Shown here piece by piece: positions 1,582-21,930 of a DNA stretch of 21,930 nucleotides. How positions within the stretch are numbered: the first letter of the stretch is position 1; each line of letters opens with the position of its first letter. The translations under genes were made by a program, and so were the position numbers. This DNA is from Terriglobia bacterium (GTDB taxonomy: Bacteria > Acidobacteriota > Terriglobia > UBA7540). The DNA lies in NCBI GenBank assembly GCA_030038235.1, contig JASHPE010000208.1, positions 1-21,930 on the forward strand. The letters are read 5' to 3'. Under the pieces are notes generated by a model that did no database searches, had not been told where the DNA came from, and worked only from the letters and a program-made list of their open reading frames with translations.

Positions 1582-3381
1582 ATGCCTTCGCGCCGCCGAT
1601 TCCTCAGCAGACTTGCCGCTTTGGGCGCGCTCGCGCTACGTGATGCCGCGCCCTATGCGCGGATCGGGCGTGCCGCGGACGCCAGGCCCAGCCGACCTGC
1701 CGCGCCGGCGAGCGTGCCGGTCCGCTACATCGACGTTGCCTCCGCGGCAGGCATCGACTTTCTGCAGGACGCGACTGCCACCGCGCAGAAGTACTATCTG
1801 GAAACCATGGGCACCGGCGTCGGCTGGATCGACTACGACCAGAACGGCCTGATGGACCTCTACTTGGTACAGTCGGCGGCGACCGACATCTACAAGCCGC
1901 CGCGCCCGCTGCGCTCTGCGCTCTATCGCAACAACGGCGACGGCACTTTTACCGACGTGACCGAGAAGGCGGGCGTCGGCAGTTCTGGGCTCTACGGCCA
2001 GGGCGTCGCGGTCGGCGACTTCGACAACGACGGTTTCCCCGATCTCTATGTGACTGGCTACGGCCGCTCGATTCTCTATCGGAACAACGGCGACGGTACT
2101 TTTACCGACGTGACCGAGAAGGCGGGCGTGACCAACACTGGCGGCTGGGGTACGAGCGCCGGCTGGTTCGATTACGACCGCGACGGCTATCTCGATCTCC
2201 TGGTCTGCAACTACATCGAGTGGTCGCCCGAGAACAACATCTGGTGCGGCGATCACAAGGCGGGATTTCGCGCCTACTGCCATCCTAACAACTACAAGGG
2301 CCAGCGGCTCAAGCTCTACCGCAACAATCACGACGGCACTTTCAGCGACGTCAGCCGTAAGTCGGGCGTGGGCGTTCCCGAAGCCAAGGGAATGGGCGTG
2401 GTGCTGGCCGACCTCAACAACGACGGCTGGACCGACATCGCGGTGGCCAATGATACGTGGCCGAACTTTCTCTTCATCAATCAGAAGGACGGCACGTTCA
2501 AGGACGTCTCGTTCATCTCCGGTCTCGCCGCCAGCGAAGACGGCAAATACGAGGCCGGCATGGGCATCGACGCCGCCGACCTCGACGGCGACGGCTGGCC
2601 CGAGATTTACATCACTCACCTCGACCACGAACTCAACCGGCTTTACCACAACAACCGCGACGGCACGTTTGACGATGTCACCTACCCGAGCGGCATCGGC
2701 AATTCGGCCATCGATCTCAGCGGCGTGACCATGAAGTTCCTGGATTACGATAACGATGGCTGGACCGACATCTGCCAGTTGAACGGCGCCATGCTCGACA
2801 ACATCAGCCTTTATCATTCCGAGGTCACCTACAAAGAGCCGATGCTGATGTATCGCAACATGGGCGGAGGCAAGTTGAAGAAAGTATCCGATCAACTCGG
2901 TCCGGACTTCGTGCGGCCCATCGCGGGACGCGGCTTGGCCGTGGCGGATTACGACAATGACGGCGATCTCGATCTTGCCATCAACGTACGCGGCGATCGC
3001 GCCGAATTGCTGCGCAACGACGGCGGCAATGCCAACAACTGGCTGCAGGTACTGCTGGTCGGAACGAAGTCGAATCGCGACGGCGTGGGCGCCTCGCTGC
3101 GGCTCGTCTCCGAGGGCTTCGCCCAGGTCAAGCAGCGCCAGGGCGGCATGGGCTACATGTCGGCGAGCGACCCGCGCATCCACTTCGGGCTGGGCGGGCG
3201 CAAGGAGATCGAGTCGCTCGAAGTCAGTTGGCCGAGCGGCGCTGTTGAGAAGCTCGACAAGGTTCCGGTCAACCAGATCATCACCGTAAAGGAAGGCGAA
3301 GGGATCGTGCCGCGCTCCTTCCCCCCGACAGCTGCCTCACGAGAAGCGGGCCGGACCGGCGGCGCCCATCTGATAAAATGA
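1582..3381 (+). CDS. Tat-signal FG-GAP/VCBS repeat protein with C-terminal UnbV/ASPIC domain (CRTAC1 family)
   Basis: ORF 1555..3381 trimmed to ATG 1582. Twin-arginine signal MPSRRRFLSRLAALGALAL. Repeats YRNNGDGTFTDVTEKAGV (x2), DYDNDG and DLDGDGWPE. C-terminal NRDGVGASLRLV...GYMSASDPRIHFGLG...VSWPSG. No SD; TATACT at 1568-1573 ends 8 nt before the ATG, so a leaderless mRNA is possible. Confidence 0.85.
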   Translation: MPSRRRFLSRLAALGALALRDAAPYARIGRAADARPSRPAAPASVPVRYIDVASAAGIDFLQDATATAQKYYLETMGTGVGWIDYDQNGLMDLYLVQSAATDIYKPPRPLRSALYRNNGDGTFTDVTEKAGVGSSGLYGQGVAVGDFDNDGFPDLYVTGYGRSILYRNNGDGTFTDVTEKAGVTNTGGWGTSAGWFDYDRDGYLDLLVCNYIEWSPENNIWCGDHKAGFRAYCHPNNYKGQRLKLYRNNHDGTFSDVSRKSGVGVPEAKGMGVVLADLNNDGWTDIAVANDTWPNFLFINQKDGTFKDVSFISGLAASEDGKYEAGMGIDAADLDGDGWPEIYITHLDHELNRLYHNNRDGTFDDVTYPSGIGNSAIDLSGVTMKFLDYDNDGWTDICQLNGAMLDNISLYHSEVTYKEPMLMYRNMGGGKLKKVSDQLGPDFVRPIAGRGLAVADYDNDGDLDLAINVRGDRAELLRNDGGNANNWLQVLLVGTKSNRDGVGASLRLVSEGFAQVKQRQGGMGYMSASDPRIHFGLGGRKEIESLEVSWPSGAVEKLDKVPVNQIITVKEGEGIVPRSFPPTAASREAGRTGGAHLIK

Positions 3382-3420
3382 ACCGGAAAAGGCGGAGCGT
3401 ATGCCCTGGGGGAGCTTCTT

Positions 3421-5721
3421 TTGATTCTTGACATCCTCACCCATTGGCTTCTGGCGGGCCTTCGTTTTCTCGCTGAAGAATCGGACCTACAACTGTCGCG
3501 CTGGCGGCTGGCGAGCGAGACGGGTCATCGCGCGTTCAGTGAAGGCCGCTACGGCGACGCCGAGGCGGAATATCGGACCGCGCTTGCCGAAGCGCAGCAA
3601 TTCGGGAAGAAGGACGTGCGCCTCAGCGAGGCTTTGAACGATCTGGGCGAGGCGTGCCGCGTTCGCGGCAAGCTCGACGAGGCCGAGCAGCTTTTCCGCG
3701 AAGCGCTGGAGATCCGCGAAGCCGAGCTCGGCTCCGACGATCCTAGCGTAGCGCAGACGCTGAACAATCTGGCGGCGGTCTTGAGCGCCAAGGGGCAATT
3801 TGACGAGGCCGCTCCCCTCTACCGCCAGGCGATCGATGTGGAGGAGTACTCGCTCGGGCGGGAGCATCCGGTCGTCGCCACCAGCCTGAATAATCTCGCT
3901 CTCGTTTACCGTCTGCAGGGCGAGCATGCGCAGGCATTGCCGCTGCTGATCCGGGCGCTCCGGATCGGGGTCAGCGCCACCGGCCAGGAACATCCAAACG
4001 TCGGCACTTGCTACAACAATATTGCCAGCGTGTGCTTTGCCGCCGGGCTGGTGCCTGCGTCCGAGACCTTTTTCAAGCAAGCACTGGCCATAAAGCAGAA
4101 GACCCTGGGCCACCTCCATCCCGAGGTGGCGGTCATCCTGGAAAACCTGGGCGAGTTGAGCCTGGTGCAGGGCAGAGACGCGGAGGCTGAGGGGCTTTTC
4201 CTGCGAGCGCAGGCCATCGAGGCTATTGCCAGCAGCGCGGGTCCGCCTCCCGGCGTGGGCGAAGAGGACCTCGCACGCGTCGCCGCCGAGGGCCCACTGG
4301 CGGACCTCGAGGTGGGCGACGTATCGGCCACTCTATCGGCGGTCAGCGATACTCTGCTGGAAGAGCGGCCGCCCGCCGCGGTTCCCCGCGAGCCTGATCT
4401 CGGGGCGGAGGAGAGTCCGGCGGCGATAGAATCAGCACCTGAGCCGTCGATCGCTGAGCGTGCAGTGCAGGTGACTCGCGCCGAGCCCTCCCTGGCTCCC
4501 GGCGCTGAAGCTGAAGCCGCTGAGGCTCGCCACGCGCGCGTTCGGCCGGAGATTCGTCCGGCGCCGGAGCCTGGGCCGAAGGTTGTGGAACCGGAGCACG
4601 ACGCCGGGCCTGTCTCCGGCCCGTCCGCCGTCGACGACGGCGGCGCCGAAGCGCGCATCCGGTCGTGGATTGCCGCGCGCGAGGGCGAGCTCGGCGCGCA
4701 CGATCCGGGATTGCTGCCGGGACTCAATCGGCTGGCGCTCCTCCAGCAGTTGCTCGGACGCTACGTTGAGGCTGAACCCGTTTATCGGCGAATCGTTGCG
4801 ATCAAAGAGAAAGCCTTCGGCGCGAATCATCATGCGCTGGTCTCTACGCTTCAGCGCCTTGCCGAGATCTATTTGGAGCAAGGCCGCGCGGATGATGCCG
4901 AGGCGTACTGGAAACGTATCCTCGCGCTCGACGAGGCGCAGTTCGGCGAGGAGCACGCGGCGGTGGCGGCCGATCTCGCCCGCTTGGGCGAGTTCGCGCA
5001 GGCACGAGGGCGGCTTTCCGAGGCGCGCGGGCTGTATCGCAAGTCCTGGCGGGTATGGGAGGACACCGGCGGGCGCGAGCACGTGGAAGTGGCGCGCACT
5101 CTGGAGAAACTGGCGCAGGTGGAGAAACAGCTTGGCGAGGGCGCACAGGCGGCATCGCGCCTGCGGAGGGCGCTGGAGATCAGCGAAAGCGCGTATGGCG
5201 GACCGCATCCGGCGCTTGTGCCGGGTTTGAATCGCCTGGCTGCGCTCTATAAGGAAGCGGGCAAGCCCGCGGAGGCCGAGGTCGAACTCCGCAAAGCCCT
5301 CGAGATCCAGGAGCGCGTCTTCGGCCCGGACCACCTGAACGTGGCGTTGACCCTGAACAACCTGGCGGTGTTTTACACGCGACAGGGACGCCGCCAGGAA
5401 GCCGAGCAGCTCTTCCTGCGCGCGCTGGGGATCAAGAAGGCTGCCCTCGGCGAGCGCCATCCGGGGCTGGGCCCGACGCTTGACAATCTGGCGATGTTCT
5501 ATGAAAACGAGCAGCGCGACGAGCTTGCTGAGAAGTACTTCCTTGAGGCTGTGGAAGCTTTCGGCCGCGGCGCCGGCACGGAGCGCTCCGGGCTGCCCCA
5601 GTGTCTTGAGCACTACGCGGGTCTGATGCGCAAACGAGGACGTGCCGACGATGCCGACGATCTCGAGGCCCGAGCGCGCAAGATCAGGGCGCGCACCGCG
5701 GGGAATGCGGGCGCCTCCTAG
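3421..5721 (+). CDS. tetratricopeptide repeat protein (kinesin-light-chain-type TPR_12 repeats), two TPR blocks with low-complexity linker
   Basis: ORF as given. TTG start lies 6 nt after GGGGGAG (3408-3414). Repeated 42-aa TPR units (LNNLAAVLSAKGQFDEAAPLYRQAI, LNNLALVYRLQGEHAQALPLLIRAL, LNNLAVFYTRQGRRQEAEQLFLRAL). Ala/Glu/Pro-rich linker at roughly aa 270-420. Confidence 0.85.
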   Translation: MILDILTHWLLAGLRFLAEESDLQLSRWRLASETGHRAFSEGRYGDAEAEYRTALAEAQQFGKKDVRLSEALNDLGEACRVRGKLDEAEQLFREALEIREAELGSDDPSVAQTLNNLAAVLSAKGQFDEAAPLYRQAIDVEEYSLGREHPVVATSLNNLALVYRLQGEHAQALPLLIRALRIGVSATGQEHPNVGTCYNNIASVCFAAGLVPASETFFKQALAIKQKTLGHLHPEVAVILENLGELSLVQGRDAEAEGLFLRAQAIEAIASSAGPPPGVGEEDLARVAAEGPLADLEVGDVSATLSAVSDTLLEERPPAAVPREPDLGAEESPAAIESAPEPSIAERAVQVTRAEPSLAPGAEAEAAEARHARVRPEIRPAPEPGPKVVEPEHDAGPVSGPSAVDDGGAEARIRSWIAAREGELGAHDPGLLPGLNRLALLQQLLGRYVEAEPVYRRIVAIKEKAFGANHHALVSTLQRLAEIYLEQGRADDAEAYWKRILALDEAQFGEEHAAVAADLARLGEFAQARGRLSEARGLYRKSWRVWEDTGGREHVEVARTLEKLAQVEKQLGEGAQAASRLRRALEISESAYGGPHPALVPGLNRLAALYKEAGKPAEAEVELRKALEIQERVFGPDHLNVALTLNNLAVFYTRQGRRQEAEQLFLRALGIKKAALGERHPGLGPTLDNLAMFYENEQRDELAEKYFLEAVEAFGRGAGTERSGLPQCLEHYAGLMRKRGRADDADDLEARARKIRARTAGNAGAS

Positions 5722-8827: not shown

Positions 8828-9013
8828 CTGTACCGCCGGTGTCCTCACCGGCGATGTGCACGGAATCCGCTGTAGCGCCGGTGTCCTCACCAGCGATGTG
8901 CATGAAATCCGCTGTAGCGCCGGTGTCCTCACCGGCGATGTGCATGGAATCCGTCTACAGCGCGGAATCCGCCGGTGAGGACACCGGCGCTACAGCGAGC
9001 ACCGGCGCTACAG
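8828..9013. repeat. 3 tandem 42-bp GTAG-hairpin units plus two inverted partial copies (BIME-like cluster)
   Basis: Units at 8828-8869, 8870-8911 and 8912-8953, with consensus CTGTAGCGCCGGTGTCCTCACCGGCGATGTGCATGGAATCCG. Each carries the hairpin CGCCGGTG-TCCT-CACCGGCG. Inverted partial copies at 8970-8995 and 9000-9013. 8912-8937 and 8970-8995 form a perfect 26-bp inverted repeat with a 32-nt spacer. Confidence 0.8.
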
Positions 9014-12010: not shown

Positions 12011-12347
12011 CACTTATTCCCTCCCTGTTTTTGGGGCCGGTTCTCCGGTCCGGGCATCCTGAGCGCCGACAGTATACACCCGCCGTGGTTTGGGCGCGGA
12101 GCTTCGGTTGGCGTGAGAACGTCCTTGCCCGAAGGGGCCGCGCAGATTCAGGTCAACCCCTGCGGGGTTGGTTCGTCCTCCTCCGCACCTTGATCCGTAG
12201 GTTTCACCTGCGGCTATTCACGGTCAGGCACCTTCGGGGCCGCGTCGGTCGTGCCACACCATGATTGGGATTCCAAAGACTGAAGGCGTGCGGTATAGTT
12301 CTCGCTCGATCGATGCCGGGCCGAATTGGCCATCGAAGGTGATCCCC

Positions 12348-13613
12348 ATGCAAAGACGCTTCGCACAAACGCCGGGACGACATCGGCTGCGTTTCAGATT
12401 GCCAAGCACGATTCTCCGCCGGCCGGCTCTGCTCGCCATTCTTCTGCCTGCGTCCCTGGCCGCGGCGCAGAGCCAGTGGGAGCCGCTCAATCCCGTCACC
12501 GGCGTGCAGCAGCAGAGCGACGGCGTGCTGCTGACCATGCAGGCGGGCGTGCTGCGTCTCCAAGTCTGCAGCGATTCGATCATCCGCGTGACTTACGCCA
12601 CGGTTCCGCCCCTGCCGAGCCGGCCCGATTACGTGGTGATTAAATCTGACTGGGCGCCGGTGAAGTGGACCTTTGGGATCAACGCCGACGCGGGTACCGT
12701 GATCCTGGCTACGAACGCCCTGAAGGTGACGGTGGCGCGCTCGACCGGCGTGATCGCGTTCAGCGATGCGAGCGGCGCGCGACTGGTGGAGGAAGATTCT
12801 CGCAAGCTCACGCCCGAGCGGGTGAACGGAGACCGCACCTACCGTGCCGAGTCGTTTCTGAACATCTATGGGTCGCCGGAAGCGCTCTATGGCCTGGGAC
12901 AGCACCAGGCGGGCGTGTGGAACTATCGCGGTGAATCGGTTGAGCTTGCGCAGGAGAATACCAACATCGCGGTGCCGCTGCTGGTATCGAGCAAAGGCTA
13001 CGGCCTGTTCTGGAACAACACCTCTCGCAGCCGGTTCGACAATCGCTTCGAGCATTCGCTCTACATTACGTCCGAGGTGGCGGATACCATCGACTACTAC
13101 TTCATCTATGGGCCCGAACTCGACAAAGTGATCGCCGGCTATCGCGAGCTGACCGGCGAGGCGCCGATGTTCGGTCGCTGGGCCTACGGCTTCTGGCAGT
13201 GCAAGAATCGCTACAAAAGCCAGGACGAGATTCTGGCCGCGGCGCATCAATATCGCGAGCTGCACATCCCGGTCGACAACATCGTCCAGGACTGGTTTTG
13301 GTGGAACCGCAAAGGCGAGCACGTCTTCAACTCGAATTATCCCGATCCCAAGGGCATGGTGGACGATCTCCACCGCAATCATTTTCACTTGATGATCTCG
13401 GTGTGGCCGTTCTTCGAGCCACCGTCCGCGGCTTACGATGAGATGGACCGGCGCGGCTGGTTCATCGCCAAGACGCTTTACTCGAAGCCCCCTTATCATG
13501 CGCAGGGAATGGCGCGACGCCACGAGCGCGGAAGCGCGCGCTTACTACTGGCAGTTGATGAACGATGCGCTGTTCAGGATCGGCATCGACGCCTGGTGGC
13601 TCGACACCGATGA
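12348..13613 (+). CDS. glycoside hydrolase family 31 (alpha-xylosidase/alpha-glucosidase-like), N-terminal fragment of a frameshifted gene
   Basis: ORF 12261..13613 trimmed to ATG 12348 (GAAGGTG upstream). Signal peptide LLAILLPASLAAAQS. GH31-like N-terminal and barrel start (YGLGQHQAGVWNYRG, VPLLVSSKGYGLFWNN, FGRWAYGFWQCKNRYKSQDEILAAAHQYRELHIPVDNIVQDWFWW). Similarity ends near 13514; the remaining codons look like out-of-frame read-through. Confidence 0.8.
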   Translation: MQRRFAQTPGRHRLRFRLPSTILRRPALLAILLPASLAAAQSQWEPLNPVTGVQQQSDGVLLTMQAGVLRLQVCSDSIIRVTYATVPPLPSRPDYVVIKSDWAPVKWTFGINADAGTVILATNALKVTVARSTGVIAFSDASGARLVEEDSRKLTPERVNGDRTYRAESFLNIYGSPEALYGLGQHQAGVWNYRGESVELAQENTNIAVPLLVSSKGYGLFWNNTSRSRFDNRFEHSLYITSEVADTIDYYFIYGPELDKVIAGYRELTGEAPMFGRWAYGFWQCKNRYKSQDEILAAAHQYRELHIPVDNIVQDWFWWNRKGEHVFNSNYPDPKGMVDDLHRNHFHLMISVWPFFEPPSAAYDEMDRRGWFIAKTLYSKPPYHAQGMARRHERGSARLLLAVDERCAVQDRHRRLVARHR

Positions 13614-14748
13614 GCCCGAAACCGAAGGGCGCGAGGAGAACATCCTGCTCGGGCGTCGGATCGCAATCGGCAGCGGCGACCGCTACGCCAACCTCTATCC
13701 GCTGATGCATACCGAAGGAGTCTACGACGGCCAGCGGCAGGCGAGCGAGCAGAAGCGCGTGTTCATCCTCTCGCGATCGGCCTTTGCGGGGACGCAGCGC
13801 AACTCCGTGGCGGCGTGGTCGGGCGATATCAACTCGGATTGGGTCAGTTTCCGGCGCCAGATTCCCGCCGGGCTGAATTACGCGCTGTCGGGCATGCCGT
13901 ACTGGACCACCGACATCGGCGGATTCGTCTCCGGCAATCCGGACGACCCCGCCTATCGCCAGCTGTTCGTGCGCTGGTTCCAGTACGGCGCGTTCTGCCC
14001 CATCTTCCGCATTCACGGAACGCGCGCCGGCAATCGCAACGAGTTGTGGTCGTACGGGCCCGAAGCGCAGGAGATCCTGATCAAAGTCGACAAGCTGCGC
14101 TACCGGCTGATGCCCTACATCTACTCGCTCGCGGCCATGACCACCCGCAGCGCGTACACGCCCATGCGTCCGCTGGTGATGGATTTTCGCACCGACGTCC
14201 GCGCCGAGAACGTCGGCGACGAATTCATGTTCGGTCCGGCGATCCTGGTGAGTCCGGTGACGGAGCCCGATGCCACTTCACGCCGGCTCTACCTGCCGCA
14301 GGCCACGTGGTACGACTTCTGGAGCGGCGCCACGGCCAAGGGCGGTGTCGAGGTGGACGCTGCGGCGCCGCTCGATCGCATTCCGCTCTACATCCGCGCC
14401 GGGTCGATCGTCCCCCTGGGTCCGGAAATGGAGTACGCGAGCGAGAAGCCCGCCGATCCCATCGAGTTGCGCGTCTATCGAGGCGCGGACGGCGACTTCA
14501 CGCTCTACGAGGACGAGAACGACAATTACCATTACGAGAAAGGCGCGTTCGCGACCATTCCCATCCATTGGGACGACGCGCACCAGCAATTGCAGATCGG
14601 GACGCGGCAGGGGAATTTTCCGGGAATGATCGAGCGCCGGACATTCAACGTGGTGTGGGTCAGGGACGGGTACGGCGGCGGTCCGGGCGCAGCCGCCGGC
14701 GACAAGTCGATTGACTATGACGGCAGCGCCGTCACCGTGAGCCCGTAA
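13438..14748 (+). CDS. glycoside hydrolase family 31, C-terminal fragment (catalytic region onward)
   Basis: ORF as given, but GH31-like sequence starts only at about 13516 (DATSAEARAYYWQLMNDALFRIGIDAWWLDTDEPE, nucleophile region). Continues FILSRSAFAGTQRNSVAAWSGDI, YWTTDIGGF, FCPIFRIHG and the distal beta-sandwich. Confidence 0.8.
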   Translation: MRWTGAAGSSPRRFTRSPLIMRREWRDATSAEARAYYWQLMNDALFRIGIDAWWLDTDEPETEGREENILLGRRIAIGSGDRYANLYPLMHTEGVYDGQRQASEQKRVFILSRSAFAGTQRNSVAAWSGDINSDWVSFRRQIPAGLNYALSGMPYWTTDIGGFVSGNPDDPAYRQLFVRWFQYGAFCPIFRIHGTRAGNRNELWSYGPEAQEILIKVDKLRYRLMPYIYSLAAMTTRSAYTPMRPLVMDFRTDVRAENVGDEFMFGPAILVSPVTEPDATSRRLYLPQATWYDFWSGATAKGGVEVDAAAPLDRIPLYIRAGSIVPLGPEMEYASEKPADPIELRVYRGADGDFTLYEDENDNYHYEKGAFATIPIHWDDAHQQLQIGTRQGNFPGMIERRTFNVVWVRDGYGGGPGAAAGDKSIDYDGSAVTVSP

Positions 14749-18579: not shown

Positions 18580-18723
18580 TAAGAACCAGCCTGTTACCAA
18601 TCGAGTCAACGAAACGCCCCAACCGGAAAAACTCCTTGACTTTGTATGGGGGGGCAGGATTCTAGGTGCGCTATCGTGGGGGAATCATCCAGCAACCAGT
18701 CAGGGAAGGCGGAGGCGAGAATC

Positions 18724-20148
18724 ATGCACAAGATCAAGCGGACGTTCGTAGTTTCAGCGAGCTTTTTGTCCGTCCTGCTGGTGACGGCGATTGCAGCGCC
18801 GGCCCAGACGTTCGATACGCTCTACAGCTTCGACAGTACAGACGGCAAATACCCTTACGCCGGGCTGGTCCAGGCCACCGATGGGAATCTATACGGGACA
18901 ACCTTATACGGCGGATCAGGTGGCTGGGGGACGGCCTTCAAAATCACGCTGGGTGGCACGCTGACAACGCTTCACAACTTTTGCCTTCAGAGCGAATGCA
19001 CGGACGGGAACCTGCCTTACGCGGGGCTGGTGCAAGCCGGCGATGGAAACTTGTACGGGACGGCGTCCGGTGGTGGTGCCAACGGGTACGGGACCGTCTT
19101 CAGGATCACCTCAAGAGGCACACTTACCATTCTGCACAGCTTCGACAATACGGACGGGGCCAACCCTTACGCGGCGCTGATCCAGGCCACAGATGGAAGC
19201 TTGTACGGGACGACCTATGGTGGGGGGGCCAACTCTTGCTTATATGGTGGAATGAGTTATGGCTGTGGCACGGTCTTCAAAATCACTCTAAGTGGCACCT
19301 TCACGACTCTGTACAGCTTCGACGGAACGGACGGGCAGAACCCCTTCGGAGGGTTGGTCCAAGCCACCGATGGGAACTTCTATGGGACAACACAGTTAGG
19401 CGGGGACACCAACGTAGGCGCCGGGACGGTCTTCAGAATCACTCCGGGTGGCACACTGACCACCCTTCACAGTTTTTGCGCGCAATACCCGGATTGCTCG
19501 GACGGCGCCGGCCCCGAGGCGGGGTTGATCCAGGCCACCGACGGGAACTTCTACGGCACAACGCTCTCGGGCGGAGCCAACGGCCCGTATTATGGAACCG
19601 TCTTCAAAATCACCCCAACTGGCACCTTGACGACGCTTTACAGCTTCGGCGGAGAGGACTACAACCCATCCGCGGCCCTGATCCAAGCGACCGACGGCAA
19701 CTTTTATGGGACGACCATCAACACGGTCTTCAAGATCACCCCAAGTGGCACTTTGACGACGGTCTACAATTTCGACGGCACCGACGGCAGCGGCGCCGAC
19801 CCCTTCGCGCCGTTGATTCAGGACACCAACGGAAATTTTTACGGGACAACATCGAGTGGCGGGGCCTACGGTCCTTATGGCACGATCTTCGGGCTCACTG
19901 TGGGTCTGGCCCCGTTCGTGGAAACACGGCCCACCTCTGCCAAAGTGGGAAAGCCCATCGACATCCTCGGAACCAGTCTGAAGAGCGCTACCAGCGTCAC
20001 ATTTAACGGGACAGCGGCTACGTTCACGGTGGTTTCCAGGTCCTTAATCACCGCCACCGTACCCGAGGGCGCCACCAGCGGCACCGTCCAGGTGACCACG
20101 CCCGGCGGCGCGCTTTCGAGCAATGTGCCGTTCCACGTAGTTCACTAA
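18724..20148 (+). CDS. secreted GloVer (Gloeo_Verruco) tandem-repeat protein with C-terminal IPT/TIG domain
   Basis: ORF 18646..20148 trimmed to ATG 18724 (GGAGG 18711-18715). Signal peptide FLSVLLVTAIAAPAQT. About 7 repeats of the type DG.NPYAGLIQATDGNLYGTT..GG..GYGTVFKITP.GTLTTLHSF. C-terminal VGKPIDILGTSLKSATSVTFNGTAATFTVVSRSLITATVPEGATSGTVQVTTPGG. Confidence 0.85.
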   Translation: MHKIKRTFVVSASFLSVLLVTAIAAPAQTFDTLYSFDSTDGKYPYAGLVQATDGNLYGTTLYGGSGGWGTAFKITLGGTLTTLHNFCLQSECTDGNLPYAGLVQAGDGNLYGTASGGGANGYGTVFRITSRGTLTILHSFDNTDGANPYAALIQATDGSLYGTTYGGGANSCLYGGMSYGCGTVFKITLSGTFTTLYSFDGTDGQNPFGGLVQATDGNFYGTTQLGGDTNVGAGTVFRITPGGTLTTLHSFCAQYPDCSDGAGPEAGLIQATDGNFYGTTLSGGANGPYYGTVFKITPTGTLTTLYSFGGEDYNPSAALIQATDGNFYGTTINTVFKITPSGTLTTVYNFDGTDGSGADPFAPLIQDTNGNFYGTTSSGGAYGPYGTIFGLTVGLAPFVETRPTSAKVGKPIDILGTSLKSATSVTFNGTAATFTVVSRSLITATVPEGATSGTVQVTTPGGALSSNVPFHVVH

Positions 20149-20180
20149 TTCTGCGCGTGATTCAGTAACTCTGAACGACA

Positions 20181-20564
20181 AGCCCGCGAAGCGGGCGCAA
20201 GAGGGTAGCCCACGGCGCGAGCTGTGGGATCCGGAACCGGTCCTGCGTATCCCCCAGCCCCGAAGGGGCGAAAGAGGTAGCCCACAGCGCCAGCCTGTGG
20301 GATCGGAACCGGTCCCGCGCATCCCCTGCCCGAAGGGGCGAGCTTTTTTAGCCTACTGCGAGAGCCTATTTCATCTGAAACAGTTCCGCGCATCTCCCAG
20401 CCCCGAAGGGACGAAAAGAGGGTAGTCCACAGCGCAAGCTGTGGGATCGGAACCGGTCTTGCGCATCCCCTAGCCCCGGAGGGGCGAAAGAGGGTAGCCC
20501 ACAGCGCGAGCTGTGGGATATCCGAAACACCCCAATCCCCACAGCCCCGGTAGGGGCGAAAGAG
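20181..20564 (+). repeat. REP/BIME-like array, + orientation: 4 full and 2 truncated copies of a 72-74 bp double-hairpin unit
   Basis: GTAG at 20205, 20277, 20422 and 20494, each followed by CCCACAGC-N4-GCTGTGGG or a close variant. Each is preceded by GCCCC-GAA-GGGGC-type hairpins (20182, 20257, 20328, 20400, 20473, 20544). A unique 55-nt insert (20343-20397) with a T6 run interrupts the array. Confidence 0.8.
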
Positions 20565-21014
20565 CTATGACCATATGTACCGGTCATCATACGTAACGCC
20601 ATGTGCCTTCAGGAAGGCAACGAATTCCTCCTGAAATGTTACCCTCCGATGGTGCTGCTCCTGATTCGCAATATACCGGACCACGGCGGGCTCCTGGGAG
20701 TGGCTGACGCTGAAGGCGGCGTAGCCCGTCTGCCAATCAAAGGCCGTAATCCGGCGGAGGCGATGCACCCAGCGCGACGAATTGGTTTTCACCACGCGCA
20801 GAACATCGGCGGTGGCAAGCGTCGCCGGCATGGACCAGAGAAAATGAACGTGATCGGGCCGGGCGCCAGCCGCGTGCAGCGATCCACCCAGCTCGCGCAC
20901 GATGCCGCCCACATAAGCAAGAAGGTCGTCCCTCAGCGGGGCCAAAATCAGCGGTTCGCGATTTTTGGTGCTGAAAATGACGTGCGTCAGAAGGTTTGCA
21001 TAAGTATGGGCCAT
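20565..21014 (-). CDS. IS200-like HUH/Y1 tyrosine transposase, REP-associated (RAYT-like), stand-alone
   Basis: ORF 20565..21215 trimmed to ATG 21014 (MAHTYANLLTHVIFSTKNR...). HUH motif in PDHVHFLW. Catalytic Tyr in FDWQTGYAAFSVS. C-terminal YIANQEQHH. The ORF part upstream of 21014 is a translation of the repeat array. Confidence 0.85.
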   Translation of the reverse strand: MAHTYANLLTHVIFSTKNREPLILAPLRDDLLAYVGGIVRELGGSLHAAGARPDHVHFLWSMPATLATADVLRVVKTNSSRWVHRLRRITAFDWQTGYAAFSVSHSQEPAVVRYIANQEQHHRRVTFQEEFVAFLKAHGVTYDDRYIWS

Positions 21015-21293
21015 GTTCTTTCGCCCCTCCGGGGCTTTCCGGGGGATCGTTGTACCTATTGTCCCGCAGCCTACGCTGTGGGCTACCCTCTTTCGCCCCT
21101 TCGGGGCTGGCGGAGGATGATCGCTCGTTCCGCGATCCCACAGCTTACGCTGTGGGCTACCCCCTTTCGCCCCTTCGGGGCTGGCGGAGGATGAGCGCCC
21201 GTTCCGCGATCCCACAGCTTACGCTGTGGGCTACCCTCTTTCGCCCCTTCGGGACTGCCGGAGGATGGGCGGCGACGGGCCCGTTCCGCGATC
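21015..21293 (-). repeat. REP/BIME-like array, inverted orientation: 3 full and 2 truncated copies of the same unit
   Basis: Hairpins at 21063-21082, 21137-21156 and 21211-21230 (CCCACAGCTTACGCTGTGGG), each followed by CTAC (the complement of GTAG). GCCCCTTCGGGGC-type hairpins at 21022, 21095, 21169 and 21243. Confidence 0.8.
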
Positions 21294-21361
21294 TTGTGTG
21301 TCTCCGCCACGCGCGAGGATGTTCCGTCATTCCGGTCTAAGCTTCGCGGACTGGTGTCATT

Positions 21362-21695
21362 TCAAGGCCACTGAATGAGCCGGCCGGCCGCCGGTCGGAT
21401 CGGCGATATCGACGACGCTTCGAGTAAGGCCTGCCGATACTGCGGCCAAGGTCTTTGATCGAGCCGCAAGACTACCACGGCGAACCCCGGATAGGAACGC
21501 AGCGCTCGTCCGGCGGACTCTGCAGAACCCCGATCGCGAGTAACGATGCAGTCGAAGCCGGATCCGATCGCGGCGGTGACCAACCTCCATTTTGAGGGCT
21601 TTCCAGCCGCGATTTGCGGCGGTGTCGCGGGAGACGCCAAATTCACCGAGCACAGCGGCAAGGTGTACGTCAACGTTGGCGTCAAGCAGCCAAAT
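21362..21695 (-). pseudogene. decayed PIN-like (DUF5615/Mut7-C-like) toxin gene downstream of DUF433
   Basis: One frame reads IWLLDANVDVHLAAVLGEFGVSRDTAANRGWKALK. After about 21577-21593 the similarity continues in another frame: LVTAAIGSGFDCIVTRDRG...GFAVVVLRL...PAAGRLI. No ATG/GTG/TTG lies between the in-frame TGA (21710-21708) and LLDANV; only ATT 21695 or CTG 21689. Confidence 0.5.
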
Positions 21696-21930
21696 GAAAC
21701 GAGTCCGTCAGCTCGGAGGCAACTTTCAACACTTCAGGGAGGGCTTCATGCGGGAAGGCGCAGTCGAAAGCCTCATCGATATCCTGCAGAGACATGCCGT
21801 TCGCCATGCACTCCAGAATGAGCGCAACCGACAGCCTTGTACCGCGAATCGCCAGCTTTCCCCCGAGAAGTTGAGGGGCAGCAACGATCCACTGATAATC
21901 CTTGAACTGCACGGACTGATTATTGGACAC
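21682..21930 (-). CDS. DUF433 domain protein (antitoxin-like), possibly truncated by the window edge
   Basis: APQLLGGKLAIRGTRLSVALILECMANGMSLQDIDEAF..FPHEAL matches the DUF433 core (GG.P.IRGTR+.V..+L). The ORF reaches the last base of the window (GTG at 21930), so the true start may lie outside. Confidence 0.8.
   Translation of the reverse strand: MSNNQSVQFKDYQWIVAAPQLLGGKLAIRGTRLSVALILECMANGMSLQDIDEAFDCAFPHEALPEVLKVASELTDSFHLAA

Follow-up and report, generated by a model that had tools for sequence, protein, structure and literature searches.

A Y1 transposase gene between inverted repeat arrays

A contig of a Terriglobia bacterium (JASHPE010000208.1; its 21,930 bp are referred to below as the window) carries near its right end a solitary gene for a Y1/HUH tyrosine transposase, which lies between two mutually inverted arrays of a two-hairpin repeat. 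A first-pass annotation, made from the DNA letters alone, had described the gene as a 149-aa open reading frame (ORF) on the minus strand (20565..21014) with the motifs DHVHFLW and WQTGYAAFSV; translation bore this out, with DHVHFLW and WQTGYAAFSVS in the product, and the search with the Y1_Tnp hidden Markov model (HMM) that it proposed (Pfam PF01797) gave a match with E = 3.2e-19 and 69.7 bits (cut-off 23) over profile positions 3–121 of 121. The gene is solitary, as stated there: no tnpB-sized ORF was found adjoining it, and its neighbors in the window encode a TIG-domain repeat protein and a DUF433 protein. In the ORF list, an alternative GTG start extends the reading frame to 21215; we adopted the ATG start of the 149-aa form because all 120 best homologs are about 149 aa long and begin at the equivalent ATG. 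These 120, out of 1888 homologs of the window protein, share 64–80% identity with it and fall into small clusters. The HUH, WQ, and Tyr motifs are intact in the window protein and invariant in 30 homologs, with H55, H57, and Y114 invariant or nearly so, and 26 further columns are invariant among homologs from three phyla. Base composition does not mark the module as foreign, being uniform over the window.

The repeat unit consists of hairpin 1 (GCCCC-GRA-GGGGC), a purine-rich linker of 8 nt (GAAAGAGG), the tag GTAG, hairpin 2 (CCCACAGC-GNNA-GCTGTGGG; 8 bp with a GNRA-type loop), and a spacer of ~27 nt, and it recurs with a period of 72–74 bp. Tandem Repeats Finder delimited the left array at 20181–20519/20564 (period 72, 4.7 copies) and the right array at 21062–21271 (period 74, 2.8 copies, 93% matches), and 19 inverted pairs of up to 79 nt join the two. 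The sequence GGTAGCCCACAGCGNNAGCTGTGGG, allowing at most three mismatches, occurs six times against 0.00 expected, as does GCCCCGAAGGGGCGAAAGAGG (six against 0.00). As single-stranded DNA (ssDNA), each unit folds into two hairpins on either strand (z = −4.3 to −5.0 vs shuffles), in line with the earlier description of a two-hairpin unit longer than the classical repetitive extragenic palindromes (REPs). The features are listed below; scores were obtained with a covariance model built from 130 related units and run without filters (model R1, distinct from unit R1) and with the Rfam family RF01687.

20175..20230, plus strand: full unit L1, with hairpin 1 GCCCGC-GAA-GCGGGC, linker GCAAGAGG, GTAG at 20205–20208, and hairpin 2 CCCACGGC-GCGA-GCTGTGGG; model R1, 56.7 bits, E = 1.8e-12
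20248..20303, plus strand: full unit L2, hairpin 2 with a 5-nt loop or a one-base insertion; model R1, 50.7 bits
20320..20390, plus strand: degenerate unit L3, a hairpin-1 remnant followed by a T-run, with hairpin 2 decayed to TAGCCTACTGCGAGAGCCTATTTC; a 73% repeat copy, not detected by model R1
20391..20447, plus strand: full unit L4 (GTAGTCCACAGC...); model R1, 49.8 bits
20464..20519, plus strand: full unit L5 (inner), hairpin 2 ending ~47 nt from the stop codon; model R1, 68.7 bits; RF01687, 45.9 bits on the minus strand (20472–20517)
20536..20567, plus strand: hairpin-1-only remnant, GCCCCGGTAGGGGC-GAAAGAG, abutting the stop codon (CTA, 20565–20567) and forming an inverted repeat with 21005–21034; model R1 weak, 11.4 bits
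20565..21014, minus strand: Y1/HUH tyrosine transposase gene, 149 aa; HUH motif DHVH, W motif WQ, catalytic Tyr in RYIANQEQHH, C-terminal tail of ~30 aa
21005..21044, minus strand: hairpin-1-only remnant, GCCCCGGAGGGGC-GAAAGAAC, with the ATG directly after it, conserved in homologous loci; model R1, 19.4 bits
21061..21116, minus strand: full unit R1 (inner), hairpin 2 ending 48 nt before the ATG; model R1, 50.1 bits; RF01687, 40.4 bits on the plus strand
21135..21190, minus strand: full unit R2; model R1, 65.7 bits; RF01687, 49.5 bits on the plus strand
21209..21264, minus strand: full unit R3; model R1, 64.2 bits; RF01687, 44.1 bits on the plus strand
21265..21293, minus strand: outermost spacer-like remnant of a further unit, the third direct-repeat copy (77% identity)

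The model matches together with the degenerate copy at ~20320–20390 agree with the count given in the first-pass annotation (four full and two truncated units on the left, three full and two truncated on the right). The hairpin-1 remnant that abuts the stop codon has the same layout in four related loci (L001, L002, L039, and L140). On the other side of the gene, the 3' arm of the inner hairpin 1 includes the sequence GGAGG, 11 nt from the ATG, which is likely the ribosome-binding region.

The gene and its flanking units are conserved together

About 200 related loci made up the comparison set. Seven of them (L001, L002, L004, L126, L128, L129, and L131) were chosen by protein identity alone, and an inverted pair of units is present in all seven, ~46–48 nt before the ATG and ~45–50 nt after the stop codon. 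Toward the ATG, the gene strand reads outer hairpin–linker–tag–hairpin 2, then ~25 nt, the inner hairpin 1, and a further ~8 nt, and the mirror image of this arrangement stands after the stop codon; the ends of the homologous loci are inverted repeats of ~95 nt. The neighborhoods of the seven loci are unrelated, and the DNA that they have in common with the window comprises the gene and the inner units only (68–73% identity). In L128, an IS3-family insertion sequence (IS) with HTH_Tnp_1 and rve domains (3091–4535) lies between the Y1 gene and the displaced downstream unit.

Metagenome contigs, again selected by protein, supplied 80 further loci (47–77% identity), 76 of which were evaluable. 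A tagged hairpin was scored when an AG tag and a CC-initiated 8-bp hairpin with at most one mismatch lay 35–75 nt from a gene end and pointed inward. Such hairpins were found on both sides of the gene in 42/76 loci and on one side in 23/76 (65/76 in total), compared with 7/152 when the same windows were read on the other strand as a control, and their distances are tight (medians: 46 nt upstream of the ATG, 52 nt downstream of the stop codon). By count, the tags were GTAG (36), GCAG (22), ATAG (20), TTAG (15), AAAG (6), and others, with 27 different stems. The unit of GTAG plus hairpin proposed at first sight is confirmed for the window, but across the family GTAG is one variant only: the conserved tag is NNAG, and it varies with the protein lineage. 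A strict regular expression for GTAG plus hairpin was tried and abandoned; it found both sides in only 8 of 75–76 loci (two filter versions) because the tags vary (ATAG, GCAG, TTAG, and others), not because tagged hairpins are absent. Collectively, the two locus sets show that gene and inverted modules are inherited jointly, at fixed spacing, among homologs of 47–80% identity.

Individual loci have features of their own. In L004/L005 (9560–10700), the Y1 homolog looks decayed (HVR for HVH, WETGY, 147 aa), the upstream hairpin 2 is split by a palindromic insertion with 42-nt arms (CTGTCATTCTGAGCGAAGCGAAGAATCTGC...), and outside the units, on both sides, stand REPIN-like doublets of another GTAG family (GTAGGGGCGAGGC-GGYG-GCCTCGCCC). 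Upstream in L128 is a BrnT/BrnA toxin–antitoxin pair.

Gene-less doublets of the unit are dispersed in three phyla

Species-representative genomes were scanned with the exact pattern of GTAG plus the window-type hairpin 2, which yielded at least 120 stretches from Acidobacteriota, Verrucomicrobiota, and Planctomycetota. Classified with model R1 and HMM searches, the 120 stretches listed fall into five classes:

Gene-less convergent doublets: 71 stretches, inner gap median 104 nt
Y1 homolog adjacent (45–59% identity): 8 stretches
Wide pairs: 3 stretches
Single or same-strand units: 37 stretches (10 at a block edge)
Chance match: 1 stretch

Among the matches listed, gene-less convergent doublets are far commoner than gene-bearing loci, and they are dispersed in three phyla. 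The first-pass guess of a non-proteobacterial lineage fits this distribution, since both the related loci and the doublets come from Acidobacteriota, Planctomycetota, and Verrucomicrobiota. A doublet has the full gene-bearing architecture minus the ORF, and Rfam also calls doublets RF01687. Several metagenome-assembled genomes (MAGs) hold at least four to at least six separate loci each among the matches listed. Doublets of one genome are 86–93% identical over exactly the doublet (187–290 bp), with unrelated flanks. In one family (L014, L019, L021, and L083), one outer hairpin is unlike the other, and this difference is conserved between copies and genomes, which suggests that the doublet is copied as a unit. 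The organization is that of REPINs or of miniature inverted-repeat transposable elements (MITEs) relative to an autonomous partner.

One repeat at first read as proof of mobile doublet ends was dropped, as it is an IS with units inside. On a single Bryobacterales contig (L026, 867–2320, and L091, 5300–6760), a 1453-bp element occurs at two sites with 99.2% identity; it encodes an rve/IS481-like transposase and is bounded by terminal inverted repeats of its own (CCCTAATCCGTCCGTAAGCTT) that lie ~41 nt beyond the units, and one Acido-Lenti-1 (RF01687) unit is subterminal at each end, in inverted orientation.

The transposase falls outside the classical RAYT clades

The first-pass annotation had called the gene a REP-associated tyrosine transposase (RAYT) with its cognate REP arrays. 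The arrangement it described, a solitary Y1 gene bracketed by inverted tag-hairpin repeats, stands, but the assignment to the classical RAYT clade does not. The window protein passes the NCBIfam IS200/IS605 model NF033573 marginally (56.7 bits, cut-off 55) and remains far below the cut-off of the REP_Tyr_transpos model NF047646 (24.9 bits vs 80), and its Y motif reads YIANQEQHH instead of the RAYT-type YIxxNP. By sequence, the closest solved structures are ISDra2 TnpA chains (2XM3, E = 3.4e-4), with the HUH and Tyr motifs aligned (DHVH with DHVH, RYIANQ with KYIESQ), and no RAYT chains were found among the Protein Data Bank matches at E ≤ 0.01. These comparisons place the window protein outside the classical RAYT clades as far as its sequence goes.

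The superfamily survey of Quentin et al. (2018; PMC6006769, Table 1) defines a TnpA-Y1 subclass 1.2 with the motifs DH[IV]H, WQ, and YIKNQKEHH (Y---Q--HH), a median length of 148 aa, and a 30-aa tail. The subclass has 1.7 copies per genome at 36% identity, compared with 4.8 copies at 99% for true IS200, and is listed as "REP: no" with hosts among Cyanobacteria and Bacteroidetes (PMC6006769); no acidobacterial entries were found in the searched supplement of that paper. The window protein fits every sequence feature of subclass 1.2, a placement made by the description in Table 1.

The unit matches Rfam Acido-Lenti-1 on the opposite strand

At the Rfam curated threshold, the 46-nt core of the full units is RF01687, "Acido-Lenti-1 RNA", which is filed as a small RNA (type sRNA). 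There are four matches in the window (40.4–49.5 bits, gathering score 37) and 24 more in related loci (40–59 bits overall), and their strand is the complement of the GTAG-bearing one. The motif goes back to Weinberg et al. (2010; PMC2864571), who had 89 sequences from Acidobacteria and Lentisphaerae, classed it as "probably RNA" because of its covariation, and as to genomic context remarked only that group II introns are occasionally close by; no published link between RF01687 and a transposase was found in the literature searched. The Weinberg/Rfam seed includes Rhodopirellula baltica and a Geobacter genome (NC_005027, NC_009483), so the family is wider than its name.

Across 150 units from the protein-first loci, 93.9% of the cells are paired, compared with 80.2% in shuffles and 23–48% with slid partners. 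In this alignment, 11 of 13 pairs change on both sides, and the covariation score is 0.337 vs 0.102; a MAFFT alignment of pattern-derived units pointed in the same direction. Hairpin 2 has 27 distinct stems and hairpin 1 has 38 distinct arms. The stems covary, and tag and stem change with the protein lineage.

Because both strands fold equally well as DNA, we used the asymmetry of wobble pairs to tell which strand is structured. On the tag strand, G.T outnumbers A.C by 11:2 in hairpin 2 and by 8:2 in the outer hairpin 1. When the Weinberg alignment was recounted in the Rfam orientation, 38 A.C and 8 G.U pairs were found among 70 unique sequences, and such an excess of A.C means that the wobble pairs are on the other strand even in the published seed. 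The tag-strand loops are GNRA in 132/165 hairpin-2 copies and GNA in 92/130 copies of the outer hairpin 1. These counts indicate that the tag-bearing strand is the structured strand, the reverse of the Rfam annotation; the wobble and loop evidence fits ssDNA and RNA alike and does not distinguish between them.

Tandem arrays, a probable local amplification

Arrays are not the usual condition of the flanks: most relatives carry exactly one unit per side, whereas the window has 3–4 units upstream and 5–6 downstream of the gene. L140, whose Y1 protein is 69% identical, has six tandem units upstream (1520–1952; spacing 72–88 nt, most steps 72 nt) and one downstream; its units have the tag ATAG and an identical hairpin 1 in all six, and the same hairpin stands again before the ATG. 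Arrays of other periods occur in L052 and L122, and the Lentisphaera sequences of the Rfam seed have spacings of 69, 74, 110, and 115 nt. Both in the window and in L140, hairpin 1 has one sequence in its outer and inner copies, which form direct repeats 72 nt apart; in loci without arrays, the two copies differ. Array copies are also more alike within an array than across arrays (93% within the right array vs 78% across). From the direct repeats and the greater likeness within arrays, we infer that the arrays probably arose by local amplification, through slippage or unequal exchange between hairpin-1 copies, and not by repeated insertion.

Interpretation of the locus

The co-inheritance of gene and inverted modules, the numerous gene-less doublets, and the covarying stems together make it probable that the locus is REPtron-like, i.e., a single-copy Y1 gene of the subclass-1.2 type between inverted copies of its cognate ssDNA recognition module. 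By analogy with the TnpA proteins of IS608 and ISDra2 and with E. coli TnpA-REP, whose established mechanism is summarized in PMC6006769, the enzyme would bind hairpin 2 on ssDNA, for example on the lagging-strand template, read the four-base tag at the 5' foot of this hairpin, and cleave and rejoin nearby through its tyrosine. Acting in trans, it could mobilize or copy the gene-less doublets. The inner hairpin 1 may hide the GGAGG region and thereby keep expression low, as in IS200.

Several points weigh against this reading. Model R1 found no significant copy elsewhere in the 21.9-kb window, where the units lie only beside the gene, and the same holds for the ~20-kb flanks of L001, L002, and L004. 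Under the AG-tag criterion, 11/76 homologous loci have no tagged hairpin. The identity between doublet copies is only 86–93%, so any activity is old or slow; no conserved target sequence or duplication is visible at the doublet ends, and neither a transposition event nor an empty site or cleavage site was seen at the loci compared. The AlphaFold2 model of the protein (23-sequence alignment) has a mean confidence (pLDDT) of 44.8, too poor for comparing folds with IS608/ISDra2 or RAYT. As to the strand, the inner hairpin 1 shows no bias (3 G.T vs 6 A.C, not significant), the wobble counts are counts of sequences and not of independent events, and the hairpins may have a role at the RNA level.

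An alternative would be an ordinary autonomous IS200-type IS (tnpA only) with MITE derivatives, which is selfish, multi-copy, and horizontally moving. Its attractions are the pass of the NCBIfam IS200/IS605 cut-off, the nearest solved relative being ISDra2 TnpA, neighborhoods that differ between homologs of 64–80% identity, the restriction of the DNA common to the window and related loci to the gene and both inner units, as for a discrete module, and the resemblance of the gene-less doublets to MITEs. However, the ends of IS200/IS605 elements are different hairpins on the same strand, and here they are inverted repeats of ~95 nt. The 90%-identity cluster of the window protein has one member, on one contig, in 15 billion proteins; its best metagenome match is 77% identical, and no near-identical second copy was found. 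Two relatives, P0013 and P0111, recur as identical proteins on 12 and 15 contigs from different samples, always with the same neighbors at the same distances. The copy numbers reported for subclass 1.2 and true IS200 likewise speak against an ordinary IS, with the limit that, for all such copy-number evidence, MAG assemblies may collapse or lose repeated copies. The first-pass annotation had named several identical copies with same-strand left-end and right-end hairpins as the signs of an ordinary IS; in the MAG and metagenome data, neither was found, and the ends are inverted. Given the single-member cluster, the fixed neighborhoods, and the inverted ends, a stably located low-copy gene is favored over a hopping IS, though not finally, and we regard the ordinary IS as unlikely.

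Somewhat less likely still is that the repeats now serve the host as extragenic palindromes (mRNA stabilizers, protein-binding sites, or transcription barriers), with the Y1 gene a relic and the arrays kept for a cis effect on neighboring genes. Roles of this kind are documented for classical REPs (PMC3733652); copies within one genome have diverged to the extent given above, some Y1 genes are decaying (L004, with HVR for HVH and the insertion in its upstream hairpin), and one hairpin-1 remnant followed by a T-run scores as terminator-like (20323–20340). A relic gene is hard to reconcile with the Y1 protein itself, which is clearly constrained across three phyla in the HUH, WQ, and Tyr motifs and the further invariant columns, or with a tag and stem that co-vary with the protein lineage. 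This constraint and this co-variation, neither of which would otherwise be kept, argue that the enzyme still reads the hairpins.

It is very improbable that the units are structured small RNA genes or parts of them, as filed in Rfam, and that their association with Y1 genes is incidental or a matter of RNA-level regulation. All full units do reach or approach the RF01687 gathering score, covariation is strong, the loops are of GNRA type, and the covariation-based rating of Weinberg et al. (PMC2864571) points the same way. Covariation is, however, equally expected for ssDNA hairpins bound by a Y1 enzyme, and the strand with the wobble pairs is the complement of the one in Rfam, in the published seed as well. 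An sRNA gene would not be expected to occur as inverted pairs that flank a transposase gene on both strands at constant distances, nor as tandem arrays, nor in convergent doublets, which make up 71 of the 120 stretches listed. A scan of 20100–21400 found no sigma-70-like promoter and few terminator-like matches, none of them at unit ends. A link to group II introns or reverse transcriptases, taken from the remark of Weinberg et al. on Lentisphaerae, was discarded for want of such a gene in the window, and CRISPR-like or protein-coding repeats were discarded because the spacers of the units do not vary in such a way.

Beyond the REPtron-like reading of this locus, we put forward tentatively, at a little under even confidence, that subclass 1.2 is a separate RAYT-like lineage of Acidobacteriota and of the Planctomycetes–Verrucomicrobia–Chlamydiae (PVC) phyla, with its own four-hairpin REPIN-like doublets and lineage-matched NNAG tags and stems, and that RF01687 is a DNA element annotated on the wrong strand. 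The REPtron-like reading itself already gives a function and a partner to a Y1/HUH group that the main superfamily survey lists without repeats, and it carries systems of the REPIN/RAYT type, whose study has been confined almost wholly to Proteobacteria, over to abundant phyla of soil and water. It also indicates that a family which annotation pipelines routinely report as "sRNA" is most likely an ssDNA transposase substrate entered on the wrong strand. If the wider proposal is true, the lineage-matched tags and stems are a natural specificity code for sequence- and structure-specific ssDNA endonucleases; the many natural combinations of protein, tag, and stem make the recognition rules testable in vitro, and since HUH enzymes are DNA-tagging tools, new specificities would be of practical use.

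Other features of the window

A second, unrelated family of GTAG-tagged palindromes (GTAG-CGCCGGTG-TCCT-CACCGGCG) occurs at 8830–8993, with three direct copies at 42-bp spacing on the plus strand (8830, 8872, and 8914) and one inverted copy on the minus strand (8970–8993), which resembles a cluster of bacterial interspersed mosaic elements (BIME-like). The cluster has no Y1 gene in its vicinity, and none of the 133 related loci searched contains this family. Just past the right array (21362–21930) are a DUF433 gene and an adjacent, unassigned 107-aa ORF. DUF433/DUF5615 pairs or DUF5615 genes also lie within ~2 kb of Y1 in L129 (1–403) and L005 (10876–11382), which may be coincidence, as such pairs are common. 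On the other side, the gene at 18646–20148 encodes a secreted-looking protein of 500 aa with ~42-aa repeats (GTLTTLxSF...YGTT) and a terminal IPT/TIG domain; its DNA contains 126-bp direct repeats (19597–19652 and 19723–19778, 84% identical). A glycoside hydrolase family 31 gene is found in two overlapping ORFs (12261–14748), of which 12261–13613 covers the N-terminal region and the first part of the TIM barrel and 13438–14748 the rest; a frameshift, a pseudogene, or an assembly error is the probable cause of the split.

Comparison with known systems

The IS200/IS605 elements (ISDra2 and IS608) resemble the window locus in their transposase, as seen in the closest solved structure (2XM3) and in the NCBIfam IS200 score. 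They differ in their ends, since those of the window are inverted copies of one module instead of same-strand left-end and right-end hairpins, in the absence of tnpB, and in copy number, as multiple near-identical copies were not found in the MAG and metagenome data. A further likeness is the place of the tag: in IS608, the guide sequence is likewise a tetranucleotide at the 5' foot of a hairpin.

Acidobacteria also contain the TIRYT genes and TIRtrons of Di Nocera et al. (2013; PMC3733652), in which tyrosine transposase genes have long terminal inverted repeats that are genome-repeated and in some cases double-palindromic. The window locus is alike in being an acidobacterial tyrosine transposase gene between long inverted repeats, but aba1552, aba3477, and tsa392 are RAYT-like (MPEHVHLL..WQ..YD) and longer, and their GGGGWSAS motif is absent from the window units. 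Membership of the window protein in the TIRYT group was considered and rejected, since it belongs to a different protein clade.

Subclass 1.2 matches the window protein in length (149 aa vs a median of 148), in the motifs DH[IV]H, WQ, and Y---Q--HH, in the tail of ~30 aa, and in low copy number. The differences concern the repeats and the hosts: the survey gives no REP, whereas the window clade has a conserved flanking repeat, and its hosts are Cyanobacteria and Bacteroidetes, whereas the window clade occurs in Acidobacteriota, Planctomycetota, and Verrucomicrobiota. RF01687 is the same sequence and structure family as the window unit, but Rfam treats it as an sRNA and orients it the other way round, with tag, GNRA/GNA loops, and wobble pairs all on the complementary strand, and its published descriptions contain neither the link to a Y1 gene nor the doublet organization.

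The REPtrons and REPINs of E. coli and Pseudomonas (PMC3733652, PMC6006769) resemble the window system in architecture, combining a solitary Y1/HUH gene with inverted flanking hairpin repeats that have a 5' tetranucleotide tag, gene-less copies that are mainly inverted doublets able to fold into a long hairpin, and a gene that is low-copy and at a fixed locus. The window protein belongs to another Y1 branch, with Y---Q--HH instead of YIxxNP, and fails the REP_Tyr_transpos model; a window-type unit has two hairpins per arm and four per doublet strand; the family tag is NNAG and not strictly GTAG; and the hosts are Acidobacteriota and PVC phyla. REPtrons, REPINs, and GTAG-tagged REPs were thus already known, PVC bacteria included. 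Relative to the literature searched, the repeat partner of a subclass-1.2 Y1 protein, the four-hairpin doublet, the spread through Acidobacteriota and PVC phyla, and the identity with RF01687 on the other strand appear to be new.

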